A DNA stretch of 64,000 nt from a virus. Positions 17,996 to 55,740 of this stretch are shown here, in pieces. The stretch lies in IMG/VR virus record IMGVR_UViG_3300033182_000991, positions 1-64,000 of that record. One strand, written 5' to 3'. The notes under the pieces are model-generated. The model searched no databases, was not told where the DNA came from, and saw nothing but the letters and a program-made list of their open reading frames with translations. A program made the position numbers and the translations under genes. The number at the start of each line of letters is the position of its first letter. Position 1 is the stretch's first letter.

Positions 17996-20074
17996 ATGGA
18001 AGTCGTTAAAGAACCGCTGAATTATTATCGTGATGGTGTGGACCGTTTTATTGTTGTTACGGTTGCCACGGAAGATAATGATGAACTTTCTCGTTTCAAA
18101 GAATCATGTAAAAGATATAATATCCCATATTTGATATTGGGATTGGGTGACGAATGGAAGAGTGGATATGCTGAAAACGGTGTATTGATTTCTCAGGGTG
18201 GTGCTCAGAAGATTTTGTATCTAAGGGACGAGATGAGAACATGGGATAACTTACAGGATACCATTGTAATGTTTACAGATTCTTATGACGTGGTATTCAA
18301 TGGTGGGCCAAAACAAATTATTGATACATTTAGAAATATGAAGTCACCGATAGTGTTTGGTGCTGAGAAGACATGTTGGCCTGATGAGGATATTAAGACT
18401 ATGTATCCTAATACTCCGAGTGAATATAAGTATTTGAACTCAGGTGGTTTCATTGGTTATGGTGACCATATCTTTGAGATGATTAACAAAGACATCTCAA
18501 TTGAAGAGGATGACCAAAGGTACTACACCAATTACTTTTTAAGTACTGGTGGCGAGATTCCTGATAAGTTAGATTACGATTCAATTAAACCAAACCCATA
18601 TGAACCACACGAAAACGGTTCACCATTCGGGTGGATGAGTGAGACTTATTTTGATGAACACATTTATAAATACATCACAGGTAAGTGGGGTGAACATGCT
18701 ACTATGTTGGACATCGGTGGTGGTGATGGTAAGTGGGCACATGTATTAGGTTCATATATAAGAGACATTGATTGTGTTGAGGTCTTTGAGCCGTATGTTG
18801 AGAGGTATAACCTCAAAGAGATGTATAGGAATGTGTATGTTCAGAATTTCTTGGACTTTGACTTTGAACACTACCATATCGTGGTTATGGGTGATGTCTT
18901 TGAACACGTCACTCAAGAACAGGCGTTTGAATGGTTAACGAAGGTTAGGGATAAAGTAGATGAAATTATTATCATTGTTCCTTTTGAGTATGTGCAGGAT
19001 TGGGACGGTGTGTATGAAAATGTATATGGACATCACCACCAACCCGATTTGACACCTACAAATATGTTGGAGAGATATCCGATGTTGGAACTGATGGCTT
19101 GGACAGAACAAAAAAGTGTCTCTGAGGAAGGAAGTGGATTCGGTTGGTACGGATGGAAAGGAATGAAGAATAGAGTTGCCAATAATATTAAATTGGATTA
19201 CAACCAACAGATATTTCAAACTCTCAACCTATCATTGGATGAGATGAGGTTGAACAACTTGGAAGGTAAGGTATATAATAACAAGAAAAAAGTAACACCT
19301 TTGGTTATTCATGCGAATGGACCTTCAGATGTTAAAAACTATTTGTCAGAAATTGAAGATGTGGTATTGGGTAAGAACCTCTTTAAGAAGAAGATTATTG
19401 AGGTGACCAATAGAACGGTATTGATTAACGTATTTGCGGATAGACCTGTGGATGACCTTAATCAAGTGTTTGACCAAATTAGGTATTTGGAGTTCCCAAA
19501 GAAAAATATCTTTATCAACATATTATACTCTGACGTGTCTCACGAATATAAGATTGAAAAGTTTATTGATGAGTTCTCATCCGAATACATTGGTATTGAT
19601 ATGATTTATGTTAGAGGTGATGAAGTGGTATTGAGAGACAGGGCGTTGGAGTTAAGTATGAACTCACACATGGACTATTCATTATTAATGGATTGTAATT
19701 ACATTTTCAGAAACAGAAAGTCCTTACAAAGACTTATTGGTGAAGATAAGTACATTATTACTCCGATGATTAATAGTGAAGGTACAGAGTGGGTAAACTT
19801 CTTCTTCAATGTGGATGAAAATGGAAGGTTTGTTCCTTCAGATGAACAACAAGCAATCAAAGATTATCAGATACAGGATACATTCAGTGTTGGTTATACT
19901 GCTGGTATGTGGTTAATCAGTAATGAGATTATTATGAGGATACAAAACTATTTCAGTAAAAATATTGAAAGATATGGAACTGATAATTACGATATTTGTT
20001 TTTCACACAATCTGAGGGAGAGGGGATTTTATTTATATCTCACCAACAAAAGTTATTATGGTGGTGTAATATAA
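17996..20074 (+). CDS. PLOD/LH3-like glycosyltransferase plus accessory domain with inserted class I SAM methyltransferase
   Basis: VTVAT, LGLGDEW, GGAQKI, MFTDSYD, FGAEKTCWP, LNSGGFIG, DDQ, LDY..IFQ.LN, HANG, IITPM, DICFSHNLRERG.YLYL; insert LDIGGGDG..VEVF..MGDVFEH. Confidence 0.85.
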   Translation: MEVVKEPLNYYRDGVDRFIVVTVATEDNDELSRFKESCKRYNIPYLILGLGDEWKSGYAENGVLISQGGAQKILYLRDEMRTWDNLQDTIVMFTDSYDVVFNGGPKQIIDTFRNMKSPIVFGAEKTCWPDEDIKTMYPNTPSEYKYLNSGGFIGYGDHIFEMINKDISIEEDDQRYYTNYFLSTGGEIPDKLDYDSIKPNPYEPHENGSPFGWMSETYFDEHIYKYITGKWGEHATMLDIGGGDGKWAHVLGSYIRDIDCVEVFEPYVERYNLKEMYRNVYVQNFLDFDFEHYHIVVMGDVFEHVTQEQAFEWLTKVRDKVDEIIIIVPFEYVQDWDGVYENVYGHHHQPDLTPTNMLERYPMLELMAWTEQKSVSEEGSGFGWYGWKGMKNRVANNIKLDYNQQIFQTLNLSLDEMRLNNLEGKVYNNKKKVTPLVIHANGPSDVKNYLSEIEDVVLGKNLFKKKIIEVTNRTVLINVFADRPVDDLNQVFDQIRYLEFPKKNIFINILYSDVSHEYKIEKFIDEFSSEYIGIDMIYVRGDEVVLRDRALELSMNSHMDYSLLMDCNYIFRNRKSLQRLIGEDKYIITPMINSEGTEWVNFFFNVDENGRFVPSDEQQAIKDYQIQDTFSVGYTAGMWLISNEIIMRIQNYFSKNIERYGTDNYDICFSHNLRERGFYLYLTNKSYYGGVI

Positions 20075-20083
20075 TGTTAATAA

Positions 20084-20110
20084 GAGGGAGTTGTCTCCCT
20101 CTTTTCTTTT
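20084..20110 (+). terminator. intrinsic terminator
   Basis: agaggga-gttgtc-tccctct followed by T run. Confidence 0.7.
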
Positions 20111-20133
20111 TATTATACTTTGGGTAAACAAAA

Positions 20134-22159: not shown

Positions 22160-24688
22160 ATGAAAAAAGTAAATTTATTGGCCTTACTTGCTGGGGCATT
22201 ATTGACAGTAAACAGTGCCTTCGCTCAAGAGGCCCAAAATCTTGAAGCACTTGATTCCCTGTTCAACTCAGAAACATTGGACGAGGTCGTTGTAACGTCG
22301 GGAGTCATTGATATTGCTAAGGTAAGAGAAACACCAATTGCGGTATCTACGATTTCACCATCAGAAATCACATTGAAGACGGGTAACCAAGAGTTCCCTG
22401 AAATCATGAACAACACACCAGGTGTATACGCAACTAAACAAGGTGGTGGTTACGGTGACTCACGTTTGTCACTTCGTGGTTTTGACCAACGTAACACTTC
22501 TTTCCTTATTAACGGACAGCCCGTGAACGATATGGAGAATGGTTGGGTGTATTGGTCTAACTGGCAAGGTTTGACTGACGTGGCATCAGGTATTCAAATC
22601 CAAAGAGGTTTGGGAGCGTCACGTTTGGCGGTTCCATCTGTGGGTGGTACGGTATCTATCTTCACTAAAGCGGCTCAGAAGTCGGAAGGTGGTTCGGTAT
22701 CTCAGGTGGTAGGTAACAATGGTTACTTGAAAACAACTGTTAACTACAACACTGGTAAGAACGAGGATGGATGGGCAACATCATTCTTGTTGAGTAAATG
22801 GCAAGGTAACGGATATGTATACAACACTTCAGGTGAAGGTTGGACATACTTCGGTGCTGTTGGTTATGAACCAAAGGGTTCTGACCACAAATTGAACCTT
22901 TCTATCTTGGGTGCTGGTCAATGGCACCACCAAAGAGATGTATATGTTTCTATTCGTGACTATGAATACTTTGGTGAGGAAGGTATTGACCCTCGTTGGA
23001 ATTCTAACGGTGGTACCTTGAATGGTGAGGAGTTCTCTATGAGAAGAAACTTCTACAACAAACCATTGGCAACGTTCAACTGGGATTGGGACATCAATTC
23101 TACTTGGACGCTAAACACATCTTTCTACGGTTCGGCAGGTCGTGGTGGTGGTACTGGTCCTCGTGGTCGTAACTACTACAACGCAGAGACTGATATCTTA
23201 CCTTATCAGAAAGATTTGTATGAACACTACGTAGTAAACGGTCGTGGTTCTCGTAACGAGGATGGGTCAATTGACTTCGATGCGTTGGTTGCTTACAACC
23301 AAGCGAACACTGACGGTTACACAGGTGACTTACCATTCGGTGGTCAGTTGATTGGTTCTAACGGTTTCCGTGATTCAAATGTAAACAGAGCGGTTATCGT
23401 TCGTAGAGCATCTATGAACTCTCACGACTGGGTTGGTGCTATCTCTAACTTGGAAGGTGAGTTCGGTAATTGGACTACATCTATTGGTGTTGACCTTCGT
23501 AACTACAAAGGTTACCACTACCGTGTGTTGAATGACTTGATGGGTCTTGACGGTTACTATTCAACAGGTAACAAGAACTCAGCAGGACAAATCATCAACA
23601 CTACTGTAAATGCTTCTCCATTCAACAACACAGGTTTGAACGGTCCTAAGATTGACTACTTCAACACTGGTTTAGTAAGATGGGGTGGTTTGAACGGTAT
23701 GGTCGAATACAACGAAGATGGTAAATACAATGCTGTCATTCAAGCGGGTGTATCAAATCAGTCTTACCAAAGAGAAGACTTCTTTGACCAACCAGCACTT
23801 CCAACATCTGACGTTCACAGTCAGTTAGGTGGTTATGTTAAGGGTGGTGCAAACTACAATATGAACGAAAGTTCTAACATCTTCTTCAACGCAGGTTACA
23901 TCTCACGTCAACCTATGTTTGATGCGGTATTCCCTAACTACGCTAACTTGGTTAATGAAGAGTTACAGAATGAAGAAATCACTTCAGTTGAGATGGGTTA
24001 CGGTTATGTAACAAATGACTTGGTTGTTAATGTTAACGCTTACTCTACAAATTGGGGTAACCGTTTCATCACACGTTCTTTGTCTAACTCTCAAGGTGTT
24101 GACGGTTTCGCACAGTTCAAAGACATTGATGTTCGTCACAATGGTATTGAGGTTGAAGGTAAATATACAGTTAACAACAACTTGAAACTTAAAGGTATGA
24201 TGTCTGCAGGTGACTGGAGATATACTAAGGACTTTACTGCTACATTGTTTGACGAACAACAACAAGAGATTGGTACTGGTACATTGTATTTGAAAGATGC
24301 TAAGGTAGGTGATGCGGCTCAGTTCGTAACGAGCTTGGGTGCTGACTACAGAGTAGGTAAAGTGAACTTGGATGCAAACTACCGTTTTGTTGATGGTCTT
24401 TACGCTGACTACAACATCTTGGATGACGTGTTTACTGCTCCTGATAACGCAGGCGCATTGAAACTACCATCTTACGGATTGGTTGATATGGGTATGACTA
24501 CTCGTTTGGGTAAGATGACTCTTCGTTTGAATGTGAACAACTTGTTGAACACAACTTACATTGCAGAGTCTAATACTAACATCCACGCAACTGAGACTTC
24601 AGAGACTTGGAATGGTATTGATACTCGTAACTTCGTTTGGTTCGGTTTCGGTAGAACATGGAACGCAAGTTTGAAATACAACTTCTAA
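22160..24688 (+). CDS. TonB-dependent outer-membrane receptor
   Basis: Signal peptide, LDEVVVT, plug (LRGF..LINGQPVND..IQIQRG), beta-barrel, C-terminal GRTWNASLKYNF. Confidence 0.92.
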   Translation: MKKVNLLALLAGALLTVNSAFAQEAQNLEALDSLFNSETLDEVVVTSGVIDIAKVRETPIAVSTISPSEITLKTGNQEFPEIMNNTPGVYATKQGGGYGDSRLSLRGFDQRNTSFLINGQPVNDMENGWVYWSNWQGLTDVASGIQIQRGLGASRLAVPSVGGTVSIFTKAAQKSEGGSVSQVVGNNGYLKTTVNYNTGKNEDGWATSFLLSKWQGNGYVYNTSGEGWTYFGAVGYEPKGSDHKLNLSILGAGQWHHQRDVYVSIRDYEYFGEEGIDPRWNSNGGTLNGEEFSMRRNFYNKPLATFNWDWDINSTWTLNTSFYGSAGRGGGTGPRGRNYYNAETDILPYQKDLYEHYVVNGRGSRNEDGSIDFDALVAYNQANTDGYTGDLPFGGQLIGSNGFRDSNVNRAVIVRRASMNSHDWVGAISNLEGEFGNWTTSIGVDLRNYKGYHYRVLNDLMGLDGYYSTGNKNSAGQIINTTVNASPFNNTGLNGPKIDYFNTGLVRWGGLNGMVEYNEDGKYNAVIQAGVSNQSYQREDFFDQPALPTSDVHSQLGGYVKGGANYNMNESSNIFFNAGYISRQPMFDAVFPNYANLVNEELQNEEITSVEMGYGYVTNDLVVNVNAYSTNWGNRFITRSLSNSQGVDGFAQFKDIDVRHNGIEVEGKYTVNNNLKLKGMMSAGDWRYTKDFTATLFDEQQQEIGTGTLYLKDAKVGDAAQFVTSLGADYRVGKVNLDANYRFVDGLYADYNILDDVFTAPDNAGALKLPSYGLVDMGMTTRLGKMTLRLNVNNLLNTTYIAESNTNIHATETSETWNGIDTRNFVWFGFGRTWNASLKYNF

Positions 24689-25129: not shown

Positions 25130-25735
25130 ATGGCAAACTATCTAAAAAGTATGATTGAGGTCCACGGCAATGAAGAGGTTGTTAAGAAGGTGGACGAACT
25201 ATTAGAAGGAGTTCAATACAGTGATGTATCTTCTTTCGCTAAAGCGTTTTACGAAAATGTGGAAATGGGTGAAAATGGTGAAGGTGTGTTGAATACGTGG
25301 TCCGCAGAAAACTTAGGTTCAAAGTGGACTTACTTATATGACATCCAAGGTGATGGAGAATTCAGTGTAGAATCAGCATGGTACCCACCATTACGTTTCT
25401 TCGTTCACCTGTATAATATGTTGGTGGAGTTGGACCCTGAAGTATTCATTGAGGTTCGTTATGAAGATGAGTCTTACAAACCTGTAGGTGCAGTCGTAAT
25501 TAAGAAAGACAGTGACGGAGACCCTGTTATCTACCAAGATGAGGATGAAGAAATGGAATATCCTGATGAGGACGATTACTGGGACGACGATGAAGATGAC
25601 GTAGACTACGATGCGTTTGATGACGCTACGATGAACTTCATGGAAGAGCTCGCAGAACGTCAAGATGAGATGGTTGTGTTCTGTCACGACATGATTTCAG
25701 ACGGTGATGGGGAACCAATTAACGAAGTAGAATAA
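25130..25735 (+). CDS. YubB/DUF1281-like ferredoxin-fold protein
   Basis: N..IEVHG, NLGSKW, ESAWYPP, YEDE motifs. Confidence 0.55.
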   Translation: MANYLKSMIEVHGNEEVVKKVDELLEGVQYSDVSSFAKAFYENVEMGENGEGVLNTWSAENLGSKWTYLYDIQGDGEFSVESAWYPPLRFFVHLYNMLVELDPEVFIEVRYEDESYKPVGAVVIKKDSDGDPVIYQDEDEEMEYPDEDDYWDDDEDDVDYDAFDDATMNFMEELAERQDEMVVFCHDMISDGDGEPINEVE

Positions 25736-25816
25736 AATTAAGGGGGGTCATCCCCCTTTTTTATTGATATTTTGGGGTAAGACCCCCATAATTATAGGGT
25801 ATAAAACAATATTTCT

Positions 25817-26944
25817 ATGAAAATTAAATTAGAATACATCTGGTTGGACGGTTACTACCCTGAGCCAAACCTGAGAAGTAAAGTAAAGGTAGTGAATGCA
25901 CCGACGCACGAGGTGAATGGAAAGAAAGTTCACGGTGTGGGATTAAATGATTGTCCTATGTGGGGATTTGATGGTTCATCAACACGTCAGGCTGAGGGAC
26001 ATTTCTCTGATTGTCTTTTGAAACCAGTAAGGTTGTATCCAAACCCAATGAATAAGGGTATGTTGGATAGTTACTTGGTTTTGTGTGAGGTATTGAACCC
26101 TGATGGGACACCTCACGAGACTAACACTCGTCATTTGATTGGTGAGGAAGAAGAAGGGTTGTGGTTCGGTTTTGAACAGGAATACACAATCATGAAGGAC
26201 GGTAAGCCGTTAGGTTTCCCAACGAATGGATATCCTGAACCACAGGGTAAGTATTACTGTGGTGTGGGTAACGGACAGGTTCACGGTCGTGAGTTTGTGG
26301 AACAACATATGGAGAACTGTATTATGGCTGGTATTGATATTACTGGTACCAATGCTGAGGTGATGTTAGGTCAATGGGAATACCAAGTTTTCGGTAAAGG
26401 AAAGTTAAAGGCGTCTGATGACCTATGGGTTTCTCGTTATATGTTAAACCAAATGTCTGAGGACTATGGTTTCAAGATTGAATTCCACCCGAAACCTGTG
26501 ACTGGTGATTGGAACGGTTCTGGTCTACACTGTAACTTCTCTAATGTGAAGATGAGAGAAGAGGGTGGTAAGGAGTACTTTGATGCTATCTTCAAAACTT
26601 TTGAGGGTCGTCACTTGGAACACATTAAGTGTTACGGTTCATCTAACGAGATGAGGTTGACAGGTCTTCACGAGACTCAAAGTATTGATAAATTCAGTTG
26701 GGGTGTATCTGACAGAGGTGCGTCTATCCGTGTTCCTTTATCTACTTCTGAAGATTGGAAGGGATATGTGGAAGATAGAAGACCAGCATCCAACGCAGAC
26801 CCATACAGAATTACTTACATCATTGCTCAGTCTATTGGTCAAGCTGAAGAGTTGGAAAAAACTTTACACAATATGTATAGTGAAGTAGAGGTTAGTGAAG
26901 AAGTGAAAGACCTTTACGAGGAAACAGTAAATAATGGAAAGTAA
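25817..26944 (+). CDS. glnA: glutamine synthetase, type II
   Basis: LEYIWLDG, FDGSST, FEQEY, NAEVMLGQWEYQ, HPKP..DWNGSGLH, RLTGLHET, RGASIRVP, EDRRPASNADPY. Confidence 0.95.
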   Translation: MKIKLEYIWLDGYYPEPNLRSKVKVVNAPTHEVNGKKVHGVGLNDCPMWGFDGSSTRQAEGHFSDCLLKPVRLYPNPMNKGMLDSYLVLCEVLNPDGTPHETNTRHLIGEEEEGLWFGFEQEYTIMKDGKPLGFPTNGYPEPQGKYYCGVGNGQVHGREFVEQHMENCIMAGIDITGTNAEVMLGQWEYQVFGKGKLKASDDLWVSRYMLNQMSEDYGFKIEFHPKPVTGDWNGSGLHCNFSNVKMREEGGKEYFDAIFKTFEGRHLEHIKCYGSSNEMRLTGLHETQSIDKFSWGVSDRGASIRVPLSTSEDWKGYVEDRRPASNADPYRITYIIAQSIGQAEELEKTLHNMYSEVEVSEEVKDLYEETVNNGK

Positions 26945-27275
26945 ATTATCAGAAAAGATTATTGAATTAGTTGAAAAGAGAGTGGGTGAATACCCCTCTC
27001 TTATTCAATCTGGTTGGTACCCCAAAGATGTTGTTATGACCTTATTGAAAAAGGGTAATAAAGAGATTTGGGGGAATAGTATCGTTGATGATGAGATAGA
27101 TAGATACGAAGGAGTTATTGAGTTTAGTGAAGGTTTTTCGTATATTTACTATAAGAGGAATGAGGATGATACAACCTATTGGTTGGTGTGTCTAACCAGT
27201 GAAAAGGGTCGTGATGGTATCTTATTCTTTATTAACAGTATTAAAAAACAAAAAATTAAATTACCATGGTATTAA
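26934..27275 (+). CDS. hypothetical protein
   Basis: 113 aa, overlapping operon packing. Confidence 0.6.
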   Translation: MESKLSEKIIELVEKRVGEYPSLIQSGWYPKDVVMTLLKKGNKEIWGNSIVDDEIDRYEGVIEFSEGFSYIYYKRNEDDTTYWLVCLTSEKGRDGILFFINSIKKQKIKLPWY

Positions 27276-27583
27276 CTTCACAAGAGTTGAGAGAAAAAAT
27301 GAATAGCGGTGAGAAGTTCATCGTTGACATGTATGCTGATTGGTGTGGACCTTGCCGAGTGTTGGGACCTATCGTTGAAAGGTATGCAACAAAATTAAAA
27401 GAAGAAGGTTCTGAGGTAGGTGTCTACAAGTTTGACATTGAATCAGATAAAGAGTTGGCTGTTGAGATGGGTGTTCGTTCTATCCCAACGATTAAAGCGG
27501 TATCTAATGGTGAGGTTATCGCAACTAAGACGGGTATCTTGCAAGAGGCTCAACTTGATGAATTGAAACAAACTATCCTGTAA
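27266..27583 (+). CDS. trxA: thioredoxin
   Basis: YADWCGPC, VRSIPT. Confidence 0.92.
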   Translation: MVLTSQELREKMNSGEKFIVDMYADWCGPCRVLGPIVERYATKLKEEGSEVGVYKFDIESDKELAVEMGVRSIPTIKAVSNGEVIATKTGILQEAQLDELKQTIL

Positions 27584-42894: not shown

Positions 42895-43944
42895 ATGTTT
42901 TACAATTACAAACCTTCCAAAGAAAGATATATTGTTTATAGAACCAACGACGGTGGTATTGGTGATAGATTGATAGGTGCAATGAATGCCTTCCTGATGG
43001 CGTTCGTTAACGATTATCATTTTAGAATCCAAGACAATACTAAAACACCAATGGTTGAAGTGTTCACAAGCAATCATAACTGGTGGAAAAGAGATTGGTT
43101 TGAGACTCCCATGAAACGAGGTAGGTTAAATCTACTATCTTCTTATGATGACTTAGTACAGTATATTACAGAAGGTACCATTGAAGATTACTACCCAAAC
43201 GCGGAGTGTTTGTATTTTTACTCCAACCAAAACTTAGTACCATACTTTTTCAAAAATCCTGAATATAAATTGAAACTTGATAAGATTGGGATTACTCAAG
43301 AGAATGTATACTCTGAAATGTTCAATTACCTGTTCACCTTGGAGGACGAATATAAAAAGAACTACAACTACCTTAAGAGTAAGTTGTTCTTAGATGTTAA
43401 GTATGTAATTGGTGTACATCTTAGAACCAATTGGAATTGGGGTGATGTACCACAAATAAGTAGAAACACCGTTCAAAAGTTTATCACAGCAATCAATCAG
43501 AATTACTTACCCAATGCAAGAGTATTGGTATCATCAGATTCACAGATGGGTTATGACATGTTGAAGGAAGGTATCAAAGGTATGGATGTTGTAAGAATTT
43601 CAGGTGATGCCGTTCACATTTCAAAAGATGATAATACTAAGTTAAATGACTTATTGAAAACGGTATTTGAAATCTATCTTTTGTCTGAATCTGATTTGTT
43701 GATTGGTTCTTATTGGTCAAACTTTACACGATTGTCAGTGATGAAAAGTCCAAAGAAATCAGTGATGGTAGAAATGGAAGTGGAACCGTATGATACTGCA
43801 AATGAATCCACAAAGTATTGGGTGGAGCAAATGGGTCATTCGTTAAGTGATGTGTATACAGACATTAAAAAAGCTTTTAGATTCCCACTAACAATAAAGG
43901 GTCACACAAAGTGCGACCCCGAAGTATTGTTTACTATTAAGTAA
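42895..43944 (+). CDS. fucosyltransferase-like GT-B glycosyltransferase (NodZ/GT23/O-FucT-like)
   Basis: GGIGDRL, IGVHLR, VSSDS, LLSESDLLIGSYWSNFT. Confidence 0.75.
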   Translation: MFYNYKPSKERYIVYRTNDGGIGDRLIGAMNAFLMAFVNDYHFRIQDNTKTPMVEVFTSNHNWWKRDWFETPMKRGRLNLLSSYDDLVQYITEGTIEDYYPNAECLYFYSNQNLVPYFFKNPEYKLKLDKIGITQENVYSEMFNYLFTLEDEYKKNYNYLKSKLFLDVKYVIGVHLRTNWNWGDVPQISRNTVQKFITAINQNYLPNARVLVSSDSQMGYDMLKEGIKGMDVVRISGDAVHISKDDNTKLNDLLKTVFEIYLLSESDLLIGSYWSNFTRLSVMKSPKKSVMVEMEVEPYDTANESTKYWVEQMGHSLSDVYTDIKKAFRFPLTIKGHTKCDPEVLFTIK

Positions 43945-45592
43945 TTAAATCAAAAAGATAGTTTGAATTGTATTGGGGGTTAATCTTTTCCTCCAACATA
44001 ATTCTATTCATCGGGTAGTAATTCCAATCGTGTGATTTTGATAATTCTTCATCAAAAAGATTTAACTCAGAAGAGATAAGTCCTTCCACATAACTCACAT
44101 CTTCATTGTAGTAATGAGAATCTAATCTTCTCATCAACTCCAAAGATTGTTCAGGTGTACCAAAGAATTCTAATTTCCATCCTCTAAATGTTTTTAAGAA
44201 GTGGTCCACCCAGTGGCTACGGTCTCTGAAATACTGAGCACCAAACTCTTTCAATCTATTAAAGGTACACATCTGAGTTCCTGAGATTTCGTAGTTATTA
44301 TTCTCAAGGTCAAAATTCCAAACGAAGTGTCTCATACGTAGAGTTAAGAATTCATATTCAATATAATCATAATGGAATATATTAGATTCAATAAGACGTG
44401 AGTCCATCACTTCGTCAGTGTTTGAAATGAATATGTAATCAGTATCTTTCACATTGAGGTATTCCAACAATGGTGTAATACTATTTCTATGGTGTGATTG
44501 ACGATGGTAATATGGGTCATCATCCAATATTTCTTCAGGTTCATCAACCACGGTGTATATAATCTTATCGTCGTAGTCTTTGAATCTCCATAACTCATTC
44601 TTAAGTGTAGGTTCTTGAGGTTCACCATCGTAGGTGTATGAGGTTTCAAGGATAATGAAGTAATCCATCTCTTCATTTAACTCCTTTAATCTCATCTCTA
44701 ATACATCCAATTCACCATTGTATATGATACAGTCATATCTTTTGGGATAGTCCTCCACATCAAAGAACATAAGTTGTTCAGGGTTGGGTGGAAGATAGTC
44801 ACCCTCTACTTTGATTAACCTTTCAGTGGTACCTTTAGGTGTTTCAGGTGGTAAACCTTCTTTGATAAGGTGAGCAATATTCCTCTTAGAAGAGAAGAAG
44901 TTAGATGCGGTTTCACTGTGAGCGAAAGAGAACATCTTATCTTGAATAAACTTAGGACTACCAAACCATGATAGGTGCCAACCACAGTAGGTACGAACAA
45001 ACTCATCACTATCATCATCCCAACGAATATTCCTTAGGTGTTGGATGATATCGTTATCCTCGTCCAACTGTTTCTTTGTAATGATACTGGTACCACCCCA
45101 AATGTAATTCTTCTCCCAATTGGTATTCCATATAAACCATCTCTGTTCACAGATGACTGGTTTGATGTCCACCAATGGTTCAATCTTATACATCAAATCT
45201 AAGTCAGGTAGTTCATCAACATCAGAAACGAAGATGATGTCTTCAGGTGAAAGATTAAGTTTGTCAATACCTCTGCTGATTGCTCTACGTTGGTGGTGTT
45301 CCCTTACCCAGTTCATATTCTGAATCTCAGGGATTGCCACCAGCTCATTGATTTGTTCTTGAGTGAGGTTCTCAGGGAAGTCAGTGACGATGATGTGAGT
45401 AATCTTATCCAAATACTTTTGGTACCTCTTCTTATGTATGGTGAAGTATAATGGTTTCTCTGCACCAGTATGTGTTTTATTAGACTCTACTAATATGAAG
45501 TGGTCCACTTTGTCGTATAGTGTTTCTAATCTATACTCCAACACATCAAATTCATTGTAAAAGATAAACGAATCTACTAATTTTCTACTCAT
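43937..45592 (-). CDS. tandem GT17-like (MGAT3-like GlcNAc transferase) protein
   Basis: Two copies: FYNEFDVLEYRL..FILVESNKTHTG..SDVDE..GWHLSWF and YNGELDVLEMRL..FIILETSYTYDG..SNTDE..GWKLEFF. Confidence 0.8.
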   Translation of the reverse strand: MSRKLVDSFIFYNEFDVLEYRLETLYDKVDHFILVESNKTHTGAEKPLYFTIHKKRYQKYLDKITHIIVTDFPENLTQEQINELVAIPEIQNMNWVREHHQRRAISRGIDKLNLSPEDIIFVSDVDELPDLDLMYKIEPLVDIKPVICEQRWFIWNTNWEKNYIWGGTSIITKKQLDEDNDIIQHLRNIRWDDDSDEFVRTYCGWHLSWFGSPKFIQDKMFSFAHSETASNFFSSKRNIAHLIKEGLPPETPKGTTERLIKVEGDYLPPNPEQLMFFDVEDYPKRYDCIIYNGELDVLEMRLKELNEEMDYFIILETSYTYDGEPQEPTLKNELWRFKDYDDKIIYTVVDEPEEILDDDPYYHRQSHHRNSITPLLEYLNVKDTDYIFISNTDEVMDSRLIESNIFHYDYIEYEFLTLRMRHFVWNFDLENNNYEISGTQMCTFNRLKEFGAQYFRDRSHWVDHFLKTFRGWKLEFFGTPEQSLELMRRLDSHYYNEDVSYVEGLISSELNLFDEELSKSHDWNYYPMNRIMLEEKINPQYNSNYLFDLIT

Positions 45593-47388
45593 TTGATTAA
45601 CATTTTATTATTGATAACAACGGCGTCTATATCTGAATTATTGAAAAGTTCTATGGCTTCCTCAGGGGTTTCCACAATCGGTTGTCCATTCACATTAAGC
45701 GAAGTGTTCAATACGATTGGGACTCCTGTGTGTGTACCCAACTTCTCAATCAAACTATAGAGTTTGTCATTTATTTCTTTGGTTAGTGTTTGTACTCTCG
45801 CTGTACCATCAACATGGGTTACTGCGGGTATTTCCCACGGCTTCTTAACAGGACAAGTGTATAACATATAAGGTGAATCTACATCTATGTCAAACCATTC
45901 ACTCACTCTTTCTTTTAATACGATAGGTGCAAACGGTCTAAACCATTCTCTATGTTTCACCCTCGCGTTTAATATCTCTTTCATCTTCGGGTCCGTTGGG
46001 TTAGCTAAGAACGAACGGTGACCTAAGGCACGTGGACCGAACTCACTCCTCCCTTGAAACCAAGCGACTATCTTAGAATCGGCTAACATCTGAGCGATGA
46101 CATCTTCATCGTAGTCAATACCCGCCTCAATGTCTTCATAGTCATTACCTGTAAAACATACATCACTAATCTCAAACCTCTGACGTGGAATGTCCTCCAA
46201 ATTGTATGAACAGTAAAGTGCTGCACCGACAGATAATCCATCATCACCAGTGGCTGGATATAAGTGAAGGTCATCAAACCTCATAGTGTTCAATAACTTA
46301 TAGTTGGAGGTACAGTTCAACATAGTCCCACCAACAATACATAAGTTACCTTCGTTCATCCCATCAGTCAATGTGTAGAGTTGGTCAACATATTTTTGTA
46401 TGGTCTTCTCTAACACAAACTGAATAGATGCAGAATGATTGAACCTCTCTTCCAAAGTCATCTCCTCGTGTTTGTCTAATATTTTGGTTGGGTAAAGGAA
46501 ACTATCCATCCTTTCAATGGCTTCATTACGTTCCTCTTCAATCCAAATTCTGAGTTCTCTCCAAGGTCTTTCGGTTATGTAAGATGATGCCCAACAATTA
46601 AAGGTTACATTATCAGTATGATTGGTCATCATATGTTGTGGTTCAGAAAGTAGTTCCCAATTGTTCTTAATCTTTTCTGATACCTTTCCATATGATGAGG
46701 CTCCCATAGTCGTACCTGCTTTGAATATACCAGGTCCGAAGTCTAACATCTCAGTCATTACGGTATATAGATTTCCAATAGTTGTGTTGGGTGAACCTAT
46801 ATAAGTAATCTGATTACCATCACCTAAAAAATAGGCTGAAGACCTTTCCCCACTGATACCTGAGGCATCCAAAGAAAGGATTGCAGACCTCTCTAAGTTG
46901 TTAGTATAATATACAGACGCTGCGTGTGCTGTATGGTGGTTAATAATATTACCACCTTTAAGGACCTTACCACCTAAAAGAACATTACAACTGATGAAGT
47001 TACGTTGGTTGTAGTCCGCTAAAGGAACATAGAAATGATTGTGTTCAAATATCTCATAACCATATTCAGGATGAAGATTATTACCGTCATTGACAATACT
47101 TCTGAAGGTTGGGTGTAAAGTACCAAAAGGATATTCGTAAAGGTCTTCCTCTCTGAAGAACAATCTCACAAATGTATCGGTGTAATCTATATTACCAATG
47201 GCGACGTAATCAATATCATCAATGGTCAACCCATGAGGTTTCAAAATATAGTCAATGACTTCCCAACTAAGATATTTATCTTTCTTTATACGTGATATTC
47301 TCTCTGTGGAAACAGAAGATATTAACTGACCGTCAATCACCAAACATGCGGATGAATCGTGACCACTTGTAAGACCGAGTATTTTCAT
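45589..47388 (-). CDS. carbamoyltransferase (NodU/CmcH/TobZ family)
   Basis: GHDSSACL, HHTAHAAS, GGTMLNC, PATGDDG, EFGPRALGHRS, KHREWFRPFAP, HVDGTARVQ, LNTSLN. Confidence 0.93.
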   Translation of the reverse strand: MKILGLTSGHDSSACLVIDGQLISSVSTERISRIKKDKYLSWEVIDYILKPHGLTIDDIDYVAIGNIDYTDTFVRLFFREEDLYEYPFGTLHPTFRSIVNDGNNLHPEYGYEIFEHNHFYVPLADYNQRNFISCNVLLGGKVLKGGNIINHHTAHAASVYYTNNLERSAILSLDASGISGERSSAYFLGDGNQITYIGSPNTTIGNLYTVMTEMLDFGPGIFKAGTTMGASSYGKVSEKIKNNWELLSEPQHMMTNHTDNVTFNCWASSYITERPWRELRIWIEEERNEAIERMDSFLYPTKILDKHEEMTLEERFNHSASIQFVLEKTIQKYVDQLYTLTDGMNEGNLCIVGGTMLNCTSNYKLLNTMRFDDLHLYPATGDDGLSVGAALYCSYNLEDIPRQRFEISDVCFTGNDYEDIEAGIDYDEDVIAQMLADSKIVAWFQGRSEFGPRALGHRSFLANPTDPKMKEILNARVKHREWFRPFAPIVLKERVSEWFDIDVDSPYMLYTCPVKKPWEIPAVTHVDGTARVQTLTKEINDKLYSLIEKLGTHTGVPIVLNTSLNVNGQPIVETPEEAIELFNNSDIDAVVINNKMLIK

Positions 47389-47452: not shown

Positions 47453-48061
47453 ATGTATTATTCAGACCCATTTATTGACGACCACAAAAGTGAAGAGGTT
47501 CACTATTACACATACTATTCATTTGAAAACGTATTCAACGATGAAGATATTGAATACATAAAACAATGGGGTGCACACTTCCCTTCTTCGGACGGTGAAG
47601 TAGGTGGTGAAGACACACTCGGTATCAATGAAGATATTCGTATTAGTAAGGTAAGTTGGATTCAACTTGAAGAAGGTACTCAATGGATTTTTGATAGACT
47701 GGCTCAGTGTGCTATTACTGCGAACAAAGAGATGGGTTGGGACTTTGACCTTTCAGGATTCGGTGATGAGATTCAATACACAGAATACTTTGGTGAGAAC
47801 AATGGTCACTACTCTTGGCACGGTGATATCGGTCCAAACGTACCACATAGAAAGTTGTCTATTGTTGTTCAACTTACAGACCCTGAAGAATATGAAGGTG
47901 GTGAGTTAGAATTAAGTGCTGGTAGTTTCTTAGTTGATGCACCTAACAAAAAAGGTTCAGTCATCGTATTCCCATCATTTGTTCTACACAGAGTATTACC
48001 ACTTACCTCAGGTGAGAGAAGGTCATTGGTAAGTTGGATTTCTGGTCCAAGATTCAAGTAA
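47453..48061 (+). CDS. 2OG-Fe(II) oxygenase (prolyl-hydroxylase-like)
   Basis: WHGD, RKLS, YEGGEL, FPSFVLHRV, RRSLVSW. Confidence 0.9.
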   Translation: MYYSDPFIDDHKSEEVHYYTYYSFENVFNDEDIEYIKQWGAHFPSSDGEVGGEDTLGINEDIRISKVSWIQLEEGTQWIFDRLAQCAITANKEMGWDFDLSGFGDEIQYTEYFGENNGHYSWHGDIGPNVPHRKLSIVVQLTDPEEYEGGELELSAGSFLVDAPNKKGSVIVFPSFVLHRVLPLTSGERRSLVSWISGPRFK

Positions 48062-48062: not shown

Positions 48063-48494
48063 ATGTTGGTAAGGTATACAGGAGGAAGTTACACTGACTT
48101 ATTCAAAGAACATGAGAAATTTATTCTATTAGTGTTCATTGATTTACAGTTGGTATTTAATCCTGGATGGAACCTATCATTATCTCCATCCTTTGGTACC
48201 ACACCAGAGCAATCTAATCACAATGTAGAGATAATGAAAAACTTCCCTGACGTGGTGTACGTTGAAACCATGCACAGTGAGGCTTACGATATGATTAATA
48301 ACTTTGGTTTTGATTATGACAATGAAATAATGGACTTACACAACGGTCATTACAAACCAATGATTGTAGGTGTAAAGAAAGGGAGAGTAGTTAGTCACTC
48401 CATCGGAAGATGTTATTGTGTTGAAACATATGTGGATATCATCCACAGTCTATATCCTGAATTATTTGAACCAACCAGTGTAAGTGAGTCTTAA
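48063..48494 (+). CDS. hypothetical protein
   Basis: 143 aa. Confidence 0.6.
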   Translation: MLVRYTGGSYTDLFKEHEKFILLVFIDLQLVFNPGWNLSLSPSFGTTPEQSNHNVEIMKNFPDVVYVETMHSEAYDMINNFGFDYDNEIMDLHNGHYKPMIVGVKKGRVVSHSIGRCYCVETYVDIIHSLYPELFEPTSVSES

Positions 48495-49184
48495 CTGTTC
48501 CACACCTGGATTTACGTGAGATACGTAATGCCACTTCCCAACACCTTTAGGTAAATCAAACAATGTCAAAGTGTTGAACTGAGGTACTTCTACTCTTTCA
48601 ACATCCATAGTATCGTGATTCATAAAGTGTAGATTACCACCGTATTGAGGTAACCAATCTTTGGTGAGTTGGTATACAAATCCTGTTGTTCCATTTGGTG
48701 AGTCTACGTGAGGGGAAAGGAAATCGCCAGGTAGATATACGGCAGCAAATACTTCATCAGTTGTAGTGACTGTTGAGTCAATCACTTCATTGATAAATGA
48801 AATAGACTCCTCACCCAACAACCATTGCCTGAGTTCACATTCAAAACAACTACAGGTAGATTGATGGTCGTCAACGGTTCTGTGGAAACAATAGGAGAAG
48901 TCTCCATTACCAAATGCTTTTGTTGCAATTGAATAGTTTTTTCTAATCTCGTCTTCATGTTCAGGTGAGAATATAACTGAGTCGAACCCATCACCTCCGT
49001 TTGATTTTGGATGAGTAGAAACTCTCCACCAATCCCTTGGCATTTCTTCGGTTAAGTAATGGTGTATACGTTCGGCGTATTCATCCTTTAAGAAGTCTTC
49101 AATGACTACTACTCTTTTAGTGATGTACTCCTCTCTGATTGACTGAATATCTAAATCAGGGTTGATGATATCTTTCAAGGTCAT
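48462..49184 (-). CDS. 2OG-Fe(II) oxygenase (OGFOD1/Tpa1-like)
   Basis: GDFLSPHVD, W..QYGGNL, PQFNTL, WHYVS, RLTYTGWF. Confidence 0.85.
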   Translation of the reverse strand: MTLKDIINPDLDIQSIREEYITKRVVVIEDFLKDEYAERIHHYLTEEMPRDWWRVSTHPKSNGGDGFDSVIFSPEHEDEIRKNYSIATKAFGNGDFSYCFHRTVDDHQSTCSCFECELRQWLLGEESISFINEVIDSTVTTTDEVFAAVYLPGDFLSPHVDSPNGTTGFVYQLTKDWLPQYGGNLHFMNHDTMDVERVEVPQFNTLTLFDLPKGVGKWHYVSHVNPGVEQLRLTYTGWFK

Positions 49185-49186: not shown

Positions 49187-49765
49187 TTAATATTCTGTGT
49201 TGAAGAAAAATACTTGAAATAGTCTTCCATCATTTATATCTCTACCGAAGTAATCTAATGAGATATGGAAATTGTCGGCTCTATACATAACCATTCGATT
49301 AAATAGATTTCCAAACTTATCTACCTGTTCCCATTTGGTAATGTCTTTTGCCGTTTCCATTGGTGAGTTAGGGTCGAACTCATCGTCCTTATGTTCCTCA
49401 TAATTCCAACTCATCAGTCCTGTGTGTTTGTGACGATAAATTCCTGTTCCTGCGGTTACAGGTGCGTCGGGTGTTAGATATAGTACTGCTGCCCAATCAG
49501 TATAAGAGTCTGAGTGAATCCATGAACGGTCTTGGGCGGTCGTATACTGGAATGAACCTGTATATTCACCACCCCAAAAGGTTACCTCACCTGCGATGGG
49601 TCTTAAAATATCTGCTAAACCTTCTTTAATATCTTCATTAAGGTGTGGTTTGGTTCTGAAACCTGGAAAGTTGCCAGTCACGTCAAACTCTTGCTGAAGA
49701 GCAAAGTCTCGTACCTCGTAAGGGTTGCTGTAAAAATCATCAATGATTAATGAATTGACTCTCAT
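49187..49765 (-). CDS. DUF6445-like / 2OG-oxygenase-fold protein
   Basis: IIDDFY.NP, FPGFRT, WIHSD, VLYLTP, FNRMVMY, FH, RLFQVFF. Confidence 0.7.
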   Translation of the reverse strand: MRVNSLIIDDFYSNPYEVRDFALQQEFDVTGNFPGFRTKPHLNEDIKEGLADILRPIAGEVTFWGGEYTGSFQYTTAQDRSWIHSDSYTDWAAVLYLTPDAPVTAGTGIYRHKHTGLMSWNYEEHKDDEFDPNSPMETAKDITKWEQVDKFGNLFNRMVMYRADNFHISLDYFGRDINDGRLFQVFFFNTEY

Positions 49766-51063: not shown

Positions 51064-51699
51064 ATGAACGCAAGTAAAAAATGTAATTTAATATACTGGG
51101 GGACTGCGGGATGTGGTTCTCGTAGTATCGGTAGTTTCATTCAAAGAGTTGGATGTGACGATTTTAAGAACACCGTGTACGACCAACTCATTGCAGTGGA
51201 ATGTTCCCATACTCATAACGTAGGAATACCTGAAGGTTATGAAGATTGTGATATCGTTGCCGTGGTTAGAAACCCATATTCATTATTTGTGAGTAGGTGG
51301 TTTGACGAGTCCAATGACTTTGAATACGAAGAAGTAAGAAATGGATTCAAAGATTTTGTGTATAATAATCCGTTGTGGGATTACTTTGGACAAGGTGATT
51401 TCTTTTTCCTACATCAATGGAAAGAGATTGGTAGGTTTCCCAACCATATTATAAGGATGGAACATATGGAAGAAGACTTAAATAAGGTCAAAGTCCTTAG
51501 AGATATGGAAAAGTTTGATGAAAGTATCGAAACATATGTCACGCAAAATATATTCAAGAACGGTTCTAAGAACGACAGTTACATCGGTGAACATCAGGAT
51601 TATAAGATTTATTGGACAGAAGATATTGCAGACTTCTTTTATGAGAAGATGGAGGAATATTTCACCACCTTCAATTATGATAGAGATTCTTGGAAGTAA
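51064..51699 (+). CDS. sulfotransferase-family-like protein
   Basis: AGCGSRS (degenerate 5'-PSB), VRNPYSLFVS, IRMEHMEEDL, Y..YW..FNY. Confidence 0.65.
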   Translation: MNASKKCNLIYWGTAGCGSRSIGSFIQRVGCDDFKNTVYDQLIAVECSHTHNVGIPEGYEDCDIVAVVRNPYSLFVSRWFDESNDFEYEEVRNGFKDFVYNNPLWDYFGQGDFFFLHQWKEIGRFPNHIIRMEHMEEDLNKVKVLRDMEKFDESIETYVTQNIFKNGSKNDSYIGEHQDYKIYWTEDIADFFYEKMEEYFTTFNYDRDSWK

Positions 51700-53320: not shown

Positions 53321-53356
53321 TTCTTCCAATAACTTATATTACTAAAAACTTTACGG

Positions 53357-54100: not shown

Positions 54101-54101
54101 G

Positions 54102-54221
54102 ATGGATATTACAACAAAAATTGACACAGAGTACCTTTACCAATTAGTAAAAGAGACACCAAACGATTTAGAGTTAGGTGGAAAAATCAGAGCCTACATT
54201 TATGAAGTCGAAGAAGCCTGA
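54102..54221 (+). CDS. small hypothetical protein (39 aa), not in ORF track
   Basis: MDITTKIDTEYLYQLVKETPNDLELGGKIRAYIYEVEEA*. Confidence 0.5.
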   Translation: MDITTKIDTEYLYQLVKETPNDLELGGKIRAYIYEVEEA

Positions 54222-54609
54222 TAATGTTGTATGGGACGATAAACTTCAAAAGTATAACGCTTCTTTATTACCTTACTCCACTAATGTTAGTGGGCCAGTC
54301 ATCAAGTTAGATGATGTAGGTGCATTCAAAGAAAGGGGTGTTAACAGAGTTCAAAAGACCTTCAGTGCGAAATATAAAGAATTGGTTGATGAATACAATC
54401 ACCTCATCAGTGAAGTAGAACTGAATGAGATGATTTATAATTCAAATTATTCTTTTGAACCTGTTATTGGTGAAATTTATCATTTGTATATTAGAAATAA
54501 TGGAAAATATTTCTTATCTTTGATATCTCCACGAGAGTGGAATATGGAATACATAACATCAGTAAGACTTAATTCAGAACATAAATGGGTTTCAACAAAA
54601 GATTTCTAA
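54202..54609 (+). CDS. DUF2452-like protein
   Basis: KKPDNVV, LLPYSTNV..P.I, FEPVIGEIYHLY, LSLISPREW. Confidence 0.65.
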   Translation: MKSKKPDNVVWDDKLQKYNASLLPYSTNVSGPVIKLDDVGAFKERGVNRVQKTFSAKYKELVDEYNHLISEVELNEMIYNSNYSFEPVIGEIYHLYIRNNGKYFLSLISPREWNMEYITSVRLNSEHKWVSTKDF

Positions 54610-54770
54610 ACAAAGAGGTAATCCTTAGGACCGAAGAAAAATTCTTGGACGATTTATTCAGTGCAGATGCTTTCATCATGGACGAATGGTCAGAAAAGTT
54701 TATGAAGCTTCACGAAGATGGATTAGATAAACTTCAAATTATTGGAATGTTAGATGATGGAGAAAATTAA
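54585..54770 (+). CDS. hypothetical protein
   Basis: MGFNKRFL.. 61 aa. Confidence 0.55.
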   Translation: MGFNKRFLNKEVILRTEEKFLDDLFSADAFIMDEWSEKFMKLHEDGLDKLQIIGMLDDGEN

Positions 54771-55740
54771 TTTTTCCGACTCTTCATTATACCACCCAAA
54801 AGGTATATTGAGGAAACCTATCAACATTGAAATCACTGACGATGTAATCTCAGTGGTTTTAGCTGGTGGTTTGGGTAACATGATGTTCCAAATATCCACC
54901 ATCTTATCTTACGCCAAAGATAATAATCTACGACCTCTTATTGGTTATTGGACCACACACCAATCAGAAAGTTCCCGATGGTCAAAGAGGTTGAATCGTT
55001 ATGCGAGGAATCATCACTTTGAACCGTGGGGTGGACACATCTTACAAGACAGACCAGTTTCGTTGGGTGAGGTATACCCAAAGTTACCGTGGTTTAACGA
55101 TAGACCAAACGCATTTGAGTGGTGGTTCAATCAAGACTTTGCGTATGAATTAGATACTGGTAAGTCTGGGTTGTTTGTGGATATTGGTAAGGATTTGACT
55201 CCACCATTTTTAGTTCAGGGTTACTTCTTCAACTACAGATTTTGGCACCACAACAGAGACTATATCTTGGATATGTTTACATTGGATGAGGAACTAAGGG
55301 ATTGGATGTACTACCACTATGGTAACCTTTTCCAAGAAAAGACAATCTCAGTACACTTACGATTAGGTAATGATACAGACTTTATGCCTGTTGAGAAGGT
55401 TCCAATGAAATGGGTGATAGATAAAATTGAGTCATTAGTTGAAGGTAAAGATGACAATGTATTAATTTTTTCAGATAATTTACCTGCTGCAAAAAAAATG
55501 TTGTATCTTAACTGTGATGTTCGTCGTTCACAATTACATTTCATTGAGGATGACCCTTACATTTGTATGGAGTTGATGTCACGATGTGAAAAACACATAT
55601 TATCCAATTCAACCTTATCTTTTTGGGGTGCATATATGGATAGAAATGAAAACAATCCCGAGACTTATATACACGAGTCTTTCTTCAAGGAACACCCAAT
55701 TGAGATGATTCCTTATGACAACTGGAAAATAGAAGAATAA
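54754..55740 (+). CDS. alpha-1,2-fucosyltransferase-like (GT11)
   Basis: GGLGNMMFQ, QGYF, SVHLRLGND, IFSDN, MSRCEKHILSNSTLSFWGAY. Confidence 0.88.
   Translation: MMEKINFSDSSLYHPKGILRKPINIEITDDVISVVLAGGLGNMMFQISTILSYAKDNNLRPLIGYWTTHQSESSRWSKRLNRYARNHHFEPWGGHILQDRPVSLGEVYPKLPWFNDRPNAFEWWFNQDFAYELDTGKSGLFVDIGKDLTPPFLVQGYFFNYRFWHHNRDYILDMFTLDEELRDWMYYHYGNLFQEKTISVHLRLGNDTDFMPVEKVPMKWVIDKIESLVEGKDDNVLIFSDNLPAAKKMLYLNCDVRRSQLHFIEDDPYICMELMSRCEKHILSNSTLSFWGAYMDRNENNPETYIHESFFKEHPIEMIPYDNWKIEE

Follow-up and report, generated by a model that had tools for sequence, protein, structure and literature searches.

Collagen lysine modification in humans is the work of LH3/PLOD3 and COLGALT1/GLT25D1, which convert procollagen lysine into hydroxylysine, galactosyl-hydroxylysine and glucosyl-galactosyl-hydroxylysine (PDB 6fxk, 8zgc; PMC11897130). 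Among viruses, R699 of mimivirus is a demonstrated collagen galactosylhydroxylysyl glucosyltransferase (PDB 9dyt; PMC9546862, PMC12279948). According to a 2022 review, prokaryotic collagens, both bacterial and phage, generally lack lysine hydroxylation and glycosylation, and mimivirus is the viral case (PMC8968730). In bacteria, a comparative-genomic study predicted that 2-oxoglutarate (2OG) dioxygenases and sulfotransferases modify co-encoded bacterial collagen-like or tail-collar proteins (Iyer, Abhiman, de Souza and Aravind 2010; PMC2938197). The present analysis concerns the first 64 kb (the window) of the 112,919-bp IMG/VR record IMGVR_UViG_3300033182_000991, which is 38% complete (CheckV), and in particular a gene for an LH3-type glycosyltransferase (GT) and three long, lysine-rich collagen-like proteins. 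Judging from the T4-type gp23 capsid gene present in all three of its close relatives, G005 (297 kb, 99% complete), G006 and G011, the virus is a T4-like tailed phage of about 300 kb. This phage probably hydroxylates and glycosylates its own collagen fibres by means of genes scattered over its genome, and the window probably contains the core of that maturation system.

The genes at the centre of this reading are the following.

17996–20074, plus strand: LH3/PLOD-type collagen glycosyltransferase, with GT and accessory domains and without the lysyl hydroxylase (LH) domain, 692 aa (Pfam GT_PLOD, 9.5e-64).
18548–19165, plus strand: class I S-adenosylmethionine (SAM) methyltransferase domain inside the GT domain, about 205 aa (Methyltransf_23/12 matches, residues 232-319).
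28735–32898, plus strand: collagen-like fibre protein 1, 1387 aa, S74 chaperone from about nt 32572 (Peptidase_S74, 1.4e-13), 108 X-Lys-Gly sites.
35117–38905, plus strand: collagen-like fibre protein 2, 1262 aa, S74 from about nt 38582 (Peptidase_S74, 1.1e-13), 113 X-Lys-Gly sites.
38905–42840, plus strand: collagen-like fibre protein 3, 1311 aa, S74 from about nt 42502 (Peptidase_S74, 2.8e-17), 111 X-Lys-Gly sites.

The product of 17996–20074 scores far above the cut-off of the GT_PLOD family PF25342 (215 bits against 27). In phmmer searches of the PDB, it matched LH3 (6fxk, 8.6e-51, over LH3 residues 14-491) and mimivirus R699 (4.7e-33). The accessory domain is present, residues 397-690 aligning with LH3 residues 186-491. 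The open reading frame (ORF) is not a full-length PLOD gene, as it ends with the accessory domain, at the point from which LH3 continues into its LH domain. Residues D95/D98, W128, D172/D173 and H439 stand opposite the DSYD, CWP, DDDDDQ and VVHGNGP stretches of LH3, which contain its Mn2+-, UDP-sugar- and acceptor-site residues. Across 19 homologues, some carrying the methyltransferase insert and some not, the DSYD, the Trp of CWP, the DDQ and the His of HANG do not vary. The predicted activity is sugar transfer to (galactosyl-)hydroxylysine. LH3-GT and R699-type enzymes are responsible for the second sugar (PMC9546862, PMC12279948), so the PLOD-type GT is probably an extending and not a priming enzyme. 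A first-pass annotation of the window had given it the priming step, for which the candidate in the relatives is a COLGALT-like GT25.

The insert lies between two parts of the family match: positions 4-169 of the GT_PLOD profile end at nt 18547, and positions 170-232 restart at nt 19166. Homologues without the insert are about 477 aa long (e.g., in G006, G011 and G012), and those with it have 692 aa, or about 920 aa with an added GT25. The 692-aa form was found in other contigs at 98, 83 and 67% identity, which argues for selection.

The three collagens that the first-pass annotation had described, of 1.26-1.39 thousand residues with lysine at the Y position, were confirmed. In the G-x-y-G triplets of proteins 1, 2 and 3, Lys occupies Y 100, 104 and 101 times and X 1, 0 and 0 times. 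Pro shows the opposite distribution, with 98, 99 and 93 residues at X and 2, 3 and 2 at Y. Each ORF contains 267-281 G-x-y-G triplets; 19 matches to Pfam Collagen (PF01391) lie above the cut-off, and every Collagen match in the whole 113-kb record falls within the three ORFs. The Gly-X-Y region covers about 1100 residues per protein and is built on a super-repeat of about 80 residues. Lys blocks of 2-9 successive G-x-K triplets recur with the same period in each protein, and about 45-50 G-4-G interruptions are spread over each chain. Triple-helix formation is predicted. The collagen regions are strongly basic, with 127-131 K+R against 32-35 D+E, i.e., about 4:1. All three proteins end in a Peptidase_S74 domain (51-63 bits, cut-off 22) with the cleavage motif S-D/E-x-R-L-K, present as SDVRLK, SDERLK and SDRRLK at residues 1280, 1156 and 1200, respectively. 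In the tail fibres and spikes of phages, S74 domains serve to trimerise the chains and cleave themselves off.

A profile-guided scan of IMG/VR for viral GT_PLOD homologues yielded 48 loci, with 42 searchable records. Pfam Collagen is encoded in 40 of the 42, fragments of 4-10 kb included, and the two records without it are themselves fragments. In nearly all loci, a collagen-like ORF lies within ±10 kb of the GT and carries Lys at Y, almost never at X. The co-occurrence of PLOD-like GTs and GxK collagens, which the first-pass annotation had proposed as a check, is thus borne out across viral genomes. In smaller phage contigs, the GT forms the middle domain of a GT25-GT_PLOD-2OG oxygenase fusion, the parts of which match the catalytic domain of COLGALT1 (5e-21), the GT of LH3 (5e-46) and the LH domain of mimivirus L230 (8e-9). 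The triple-fusion gene adjoins a collagen-S74 gene, so homologues of all three animal collagen-lysine activities stand in one ORF beside a collagen-S74 gene. The arrangement also occurs in cultured phages. In Synechococcus phage S-CAM9, an annotated tail fibre is followed by a small hypothetical ORF, two 2OG oxygenases and the GT gene, gp218. Roseobacter phage CRP-6 has its GT gene, gp58, after two genes for tail fibres and one for a tail protein. The collagen regions of the fibres gp222 of S-CAM9 and gp60 of CRP-6 contain 22 and 26 Lys at Y, respectively, and none at X.

The tie to lysine content was also examined in 109 dereplicated collagen loci, using 10-kb surroundings and a threshold of 5% Y-Lys for Lys-rich collagens. 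The 60 loci that contain LH or PLOD-GT have a median Y-Lys fraction of 0.30, and the 49 that contain neither have one of 0.00 (Mann-Whitney U, p 5e-13). The ratio of Lys-rich to other loci was 56/4 with these genes and 8/41 without (Fisher, p 3e-17). Six of the eight Lys-rich exceptions belong to the window's own lineage, where the GT lies beyond the 10-kb reach. The same holds for the wider lineage of the window: among 80 thioredoxin-anchored loci, all 8 with PLOD-GT have Lys-rich collagens, and 66 have neither (Fisher, p 1e-7). The related locus L252 (4854-20287) contains leucine-rich repeat (LRR), PcfJ-like and thioredoxin genes and three collagens, and the place that a GT would take, between LRR and PcfJ-like, is visibly unoccupied. 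Loci L260, without a PcfJ-like match, and L261, without an LRR match, otherwise share much of this gene order. No PLOD-type GT match was found in these three loci, and their collagens have 0-8 Y-Lys per ~260-310 triplets. As a base rate, 79 carbamoyltransferase-anchored loci were inspected; 13 have a weak collagen-like ORF, none has Lys-rich collagens and none has PLOD-GT. Despite kinship among the counted loci, the Lys pattern of collagens with GT or LH repeats across clearly different phage types. With the homology of the GT, its unchanged catalytic residues and its close association with collagens throughout the viral contigs, the window collagens are supported as the likeliest substrates of a lysine modification of the animal and mimivirus type that includes the PLOD-like GT.

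The LH itself was searched for with a hidden Markov model (HMM) built from seven fused LH domains. In the whole 113-kb record, the model gave only matches of 1.4e-6 (C-terminal half of Oxy1, an oxygenase described below) and 4e-6, and no LH gene was recognised in the window. Beyond the window, at 85110-85721 and 107449-108006, the record has another pair of small ORFs that resemble 2OG oxygenases (LH-HMM 4e-6; Oxy1-like 6e-8), both insufficiently LH-like for the missing hydroxylase. The HMM matches stand-alone gene pairs in G005, G012 and G006 at 1e-26 to 1e-30, at the same colinear place. The LH gene of G006 matches the LH domain of LH3 (9.3e-27) and L230 (2.2e-22), with HxD...H...R aligned. 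G006 is colinear with window positions 627-42837, and this colinearity puts the LH pair about 7-8.4 kb before the first base of the record.

A closer genome gives the same position. A 98%-identical copy of the window GT lies on a 303,974-bp contig, and in a scan of metagenome contigs LH was located on WLWG01000005.1, of 303,974 bp (L433:9992-10654). L433 aligns with window positions 1170-1597 and 2379-3200 at 94.5-96.3% nucleotide identity, and by this overlap the LH pair lies about 7.3-8.7 kb ahead of the first base of the window. It was the protein-based scan that led to the contig, since no metagenome contig matched a 35-nt stretch of the window start exactly. The first ~1.1 kb of the window (1-1169) does not align with L433, and an indel of about 500 bp lies between 1597 and 2379; on the alignment, both are local gene-content variation between near-identical phages. 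The true LH of the lineage is a separate gene of about 215 aa, some 26 kb from the GT, in a system split into separate genes. The earlier statement that the PLOD-like GT lacks its hydroxylase is correct for the ORF and the record, but not for the phage, as LH lies upstream in the ~95%-identical contig. As for the priming enzyme, no GT25 (PF01755) match was obtained at E<=0.1 in the 112,919 bases of the record. The complete relative G005 has a stand-alone GT25 (7e-13; L092:16448-17212, minus strand) about 180 kb away, and G011 also has a GT25. G002-type relatives carry GT25 as a C-terminal fusion to the PLOD-type GT, in proteins of about 920-937 aa.

Several points weigh against a collagen maturation system in the window. 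The record has neither LH nor GT25, and the pathway was pieced together from relatives and a partly read near-identical contig. The GT domain of the predicted transferase is split by the ~205-aa methyltransferase insert. In G011, the cassette of downstream oxygenases and GT17 lies 75 kb from the collagens, so the downstream enzymes are separable from them. Kinship among the loci deprives the co-occurrence counts of phylogenetic independence, and query genes determined which loci entered the sets. Moreover, Lys prefers Y in collagens generally (4568 Y against 125 X in the pooled set), so the X/Y asymmetry is not diagnostic by itself. The window collagens are presumed to form virion fibres from the S74 domain and the annotations of cultured phages. 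For all the phages considered here, the proposed modification of collagens by the phage enzymes is drawn from genomic evidence.

Some of these points would fit another explanation, namely that the Lys blocks stay unmodified and serve as polycationic adhesive stretches on anionic host surfaces, with the PLOD-like protein inactive or otherwise employed. The basic charge of the collagen regions, the interrupted GT domain and the lack of GT25 and LH within the 113-kb record agree with it. However, the catalytic residues of the GT are invariant in all 19 homologues, whether or not they carry the insert, and the 692-aa form is kept elsewhere down to 67% identity. The near-identical 304-kb contig has an LH gene, and the complete relative G005 has a GT25. 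The polycationic explanation is thus considered very unlikely.

Downstream of the collagens and their neighbouring transferases lie three oxygenase genes and a small companion ORF.

47453–48061, plus strand: Oxy1, prolyl 4-hydroxylase (P4H)-like 2OG/Fe(II) oxygenase (Pfam 2OG-FeII_Oxy_3, 1.2e-14).
48063–48494, plus strand: 143-aa ORF that travels with Oxy1 and Oxy2 and lies between them in G005, G011, L123 and L124; no Pfam match.
48462–49184, minus strand: Oxy2, 2OG/Fe(II) oxygenase (Pfam 2OG-FeII_Oxy_4, 7.5e-12).
49187–49765, minus strand: Oxy3, DUF6445, 2OG/Fe(II) oxygenase fold (Pfam 7.7e-14; H84/D86/H167/R181 invariant).

Oxy1 belongs to the P4H-like family (PF13640) and has the HxD...H triad, the 2OG-binding Arg and a P4H-type double-stranded beta-helix (DSBH) fold. 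H123/D125/H179/R189 are conserved in 44 homologues. With its AlphaFold2 model (pLDDT 89), the best Foldseek matches were the P4H of Pseudomonas putida (4iw3, TM 0.74) and PHD2, and the collagen P4H of PBCV-1 (5c5t) scored lower. Oxy1 homologues occur in more than 565 viral loci. The neighbourhoods of the best 80 of these (L123-L202), which form 58 clusters at 80% identity, were inspected. In 41 of the 58 clusters, a collagen-like gene is no more than 10 kb from the homologue, which often follows it by fewer than 50 nt, and many of the linked collagens in these best 80 loci contain no Lys at all. LH and Lys-rich collagens go together in these loci (11/1 against 2/27, p 2.8e-7). Oxy1 thus follows collagen, whereas LH follows collagen lysine. 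On the basis of the model and these neighbourhoods, Oxy1 is predicted to be a collagen hydroxylase, most likely one that acts on proline, and its family may be a general phage collagen hydroxylase.

The prolyl role calls for caution. Classical collagen P4H acts on Pro at the Y position, and Pro in the window collagens is found at X. In addition, the collagens in 2 of the 41 Oxy1-linked collagen loci, L185 and L192, lack Pro at both positions. The proposal in the first-pass annotation that the oxygenases hydroxylate Pro in trans is therefore retained in part: Oxy1 is P4H-like and linked to collagen, but the Pro residues do not occupy the position used by P4H. Oxy2 gave weak PDB matches to a putative hydroxylase and a P4H-domain protein, and the fold search with Oxy3 returned generic DSBH matches only (TM 0.5-0.6).

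The same annotation had assigned the hydroxylation of Lys in trans to these downstream enzymes. All are 2OG/Fe(II) oxygenases with intact HxD...H motifs, and Oxy1 homologues lie directly beside GT_PLOD fusions and collagens in L029, L031, L032, L048 and other loci. Nevertheless, none of the PDB searches with Oxy1, Oxy2 and Oxy3 gave an LH-like match, and the LH HMM matches Oxy1 far more weakly (1.4e-6, C-terminal half) than the true LH genes of the relatives (1e-26 to 1e-30). Oxy1 homologues accompany many collagens with zero Lys, the fold of Oxy1 is closest to prolyl hydroxylases, and the fusions beside Oxy1 homologues already have an LH domain of their own. That one of the three is the lysyl hydroxylase is extremely unlikely, and the role passes to the separate LH upstream of the record.

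From the observed homology, catalytic residues, synteny and co-occurrence, the following pathway may be proposed as the most likely one, including its substrates, the identity and order of its sugars, the order of its steps and the virion location of its product. Three paralogous fibre chains would be made in the host cytoplasm. Before folding, the stand-alone LH would use 2OG, Fe2+ and O2 to turn Y-position Lys into hydroxylysine, and Oxy1 would probably hydroxylate the abundant X-position Pro. A COLGALT-like GT25, encoded outside the record and found stand-alone or fused in relatives, would probably add the first sugar. The LH3/R699-type GT of 17996–20074 would then add the next sugar from a UDP-sugar, by a mechanism involving Mn2+ and DxxD. 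Finally, the S74 chaperone would trimerise the chains, nucleate the triple helix and cleave itself off. The product would be long glycosylated virion fibres.

Several other enzymes and one possible fibre component are encoded between and around these genes.

32898–34844, plus strand: 648-aa protein with a C-terminal Laminin_G_3/concanavalin-like domain (Pfam 8.7e-12), between collagens 1 and 2.
42895–43944, plus strand: fucosyltransferase-superfamily-like (FucT-like) protein, NodZ/FUT8/O-FucT-like (Pfam XG_FTase 0.007, below cut-off; Atlas clusters).
43937–45592, minus strand: GT17 glycosyltransferase with internal duplication (Pfam 1.4e-41, 143 bits, two stretches).
45589–47388, minus strand: NodU/CmcH-type carbamoyltransferase (Pfam, 232+137 bits).
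51064–51699, plus strand: sulfotransferase-like (SulfT-like) protein (Atlas Sulfotransfer_2 clusters, 0.96; GCGSR and RNPY conserved).
54754–55740, plus strand: GT11, alpha-1,2-fucosyltransferase family (Pfam 4.9e-9, 36.3 bits against a cut-off of 23.9).

The Laminin_G_3 protein and collagen 1 match one and the same ORF in G006, and the protein was not found between the collagens in G005 and G011. It is possibly a lectin-like fibre tip or adaptor, fused or separate depending on the phage, and its membership in the system is uncertain. GT17, GT11 and NodU/CmcH score above the curated cut-offs of their families, which gives the family only and does not indicate the substrate. The "tandem GT17" of the first-pass annotation proved to be of the right family but a single ORF, the halves of which are 30% identical (E 4e-22). 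Its fucosyltransferase-like label is weakly backed by the sub-cut-off XG_FTase match and the NodZ/FUT8/O-FucT clusters of the Atlas, and its sulfotransferase-like label likewise by Atlas clusters and the RNPY motif. At 51064-51699, no Pfam sulfotransferase match was obtained and the canonical Lys of the 5'-phosphosulfate-binding (5'-PSB) motif is absent.

Much of the region is kept as a block in G005 and at least five other contigs: collagens, FucT-like gene, GT17, Oxy1, small ORF, Oxy2, Oxy3, u49817, SulfT-like gene, u51725, u53357, DUF2452 and sometimes GT11. The FucT-like gene also adjoins collagens in G005, L364, L368 and L369, and GT11 occupies the same place after the DUF2452 gene in G011, G012 and G002. 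In L037 and L042, the gene next after the GT25-GT_PLOD-LH fusion is a SulfT-like homologue. In a scan with a trimmed alignment, SulfT-like homologues occurred with collagen modifiers in only three independent contexts, and most of the distant ones stand alone, away from collagens. The SulfT-like protein is a possible decorating enzyme with a weak link to the system. That GT17, GT11, the FucT-like and SulfT-like proteins, Oxy2 and Oxy3 extend or decorate the glycan, as the first-pass annotation had assumed, is conjectural; it follows from an adjacency that is conserved only within the lineage.

For these genes, another reading must be weighed, in which the GTs, oxygenases, carbamoyltransferase and SulfT-like gene are auxiliary genes of a variable island that act on host envelope polysaccharide, lipopolysaccharide (LPS) or small molecules, and adjacency to collagens is incidental. 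GT25, GT11 and GT17 are families that include LPS and glycan enzymes. The carbamoyltransferase sits elsewhere in G005 and G011, and none of the 79 unrelated viral loci with a homologue has PLOD-GT or Lys-rich collagens. It was therefore rejected as a member and is probably outside the collagen system, contrary to its earlier description as a fibre modifier. Oxy3 homologues are as common beside carbamoyltransferases as beside collagens, and occur also where no collagen exists. The separation of the Oxy/GT17 cassette from the collagens in G011 points the same way, and secondary-metabolite roles have been proposed for dioxygenase arrays of cyanophages (PMC2938197). This explanation, however, cannot account for the core of PLOD-type GT, LH and Oxy1: the GT records encode collagens in 40 of 42 cases, fusions adjoin collagens even in 4-10-kb fragments, Lys content correlates with the enzymes (p 3e-17), and the empty GT slot with Lys-poor collagens is a direct counter-example. 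As an account of the locus it is improbable, and it applies only to GT17, GT11, the FucT-like and SulfT-like genes, the carbamoyltransferase, Oxy2 and Oxy3.

Two DNA methyltransferase genes flank the region at 15296-16195 and 56348-57232 (D12-class N6-adenine, and N6_N4_Mtase). The gene at 22160-24688 encodes an 842-aa protein with the Plug domain of TonB-dependent receptors (3.1e-12), kept in G005, G006 and L003. A conserved block at 25130-27583 joins an acidic ORF to genes for a glutamine-synthetase-like enzyme, a small protein and thioredoxin. Of the thioredoxin-anchored viral loci, 74 of 80 have at least one marker (u25130, glutamine-synthetase-like, u26934, PcfJ-like or LRR), most of them without collagens; the genes of this block are lineage genes, outside the collagen system. 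PHROGs gave no function for u49817, u51725, u53357, DUF2452, the PcfJ-like and LRR proteins and the collagen N-terminus.

Hydroxylation and galactose-glucose glycosylation of collagen Lys are generally ascribed to animals, and mimivirus counts as the sole viral case. A search of full-text literature found no description of Lys hydroxylation or hydroxylysine glycosylation of phage collagens. Homologues of LH, GT25 and LH3-GT are widespread in marine tailed phages, tied both physically and statistically to Lys-rich collagen-like tail fibres. As the carriers S-CAM9 and CRP-6 are cultured, the hypothesis is testable by mass spectrometry on existing isolates, and L252, L260 and L261 offer a natural presence/absence contrast that is useful experimentally. 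Furthermore, the phage genes offer compact, bacterially expressed enzymes for the production of hydroxylated and glycosylated recombinant collagen, and they bear on the evolutionary origin of animal collagen-modifying enzymes. A wider view can be formulated, in which tailed phages run a complete cytoplasmic collagen maturation, with Lys hydroxylation, two-step hydroxylysine glycosylation and Pro hydroxylation by the collagen-linked P4H-like family (>565 loci). In the lineage of the window, the glycan would further receive fucose or N-acetylglucosamine (GT11, FucT-like, GT17), sulfate (SulfT-like) and methyl groups (GT insert), on heavily decorated fibres of about 300 nm, and the animal and mimivirus enzymes would share their origin with a widespread toolkit of phages and bacteria. 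Taken as a whole, this view is speculative and rather unlikely.

Such a system is known from animals and mimivirus, and its occurrence in tailed phages would be new. Compared with human LH3 and COLGALT1, the GT and accessory domains of the window enzyme are homologous (8.6e-51) with the catalytic residues kept, the X-Lys-Gly substrate motif is abundant in the window collagens, and homologues of LH (9.3e-27) and GT25 exist in the phage lineage. In contrast to human LH3, the phage LH is unfused, a separate gene of about 215 aa some 26 kb away, and the phage GT carries a SAM methyltransferase insert. The setting is the bacterial cytoplasm and not the endoplasmic reticulum. Unlike human collagens, the phage chains have almost no Y-position Pro (2-3 per chain), contain periodic G-4-G interruptions, and trimerise through the self-cleaving S74 chaperone and not through C-propeptides.

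Acanthamoeba polyphaga mimivirus provides the nearest viral parallel, with R699 and the LH-glycosyltransferase L230 (6ax6). There too, homologues are encoded by a virus along with virus-encoded collagens as presumed substrates, and the similarities are clear for both enzymes (R699 against the window GT, 4.7e-33; the LH domain of L230 against the lineage LH, 2.2e-22). The present virus, by contrast, is a T4-like tailed phage of a bacterium, and its genes are split, with GT25-GT_PLOD-LH triple fusions in smaller phages. The operons of Iyer et al. resemble the window in joining oxygenases and a sulfotransferase-like gene with collagens, but they are bacterial, use other oxygenase families, and are without LH, LH3-GT and GT25. 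As for the P4Hs, Oxy1 shares its fold (TM 0.63-0.74) and the HxD...H...R motif with PBCV-1 vCPH (5c5t), P. putida PPHD (4iw3) and PHD2, but with only about 20% identity and with the collagen Pro at X and not at Y. Against these known systems, the window adds a form of its own: the system is split and dispersed over the genome of a ~300-kb phage, its GT bears a methyltransferase, and a P4H-like family distinct from LH follows phage collagens whatever their Lys content.

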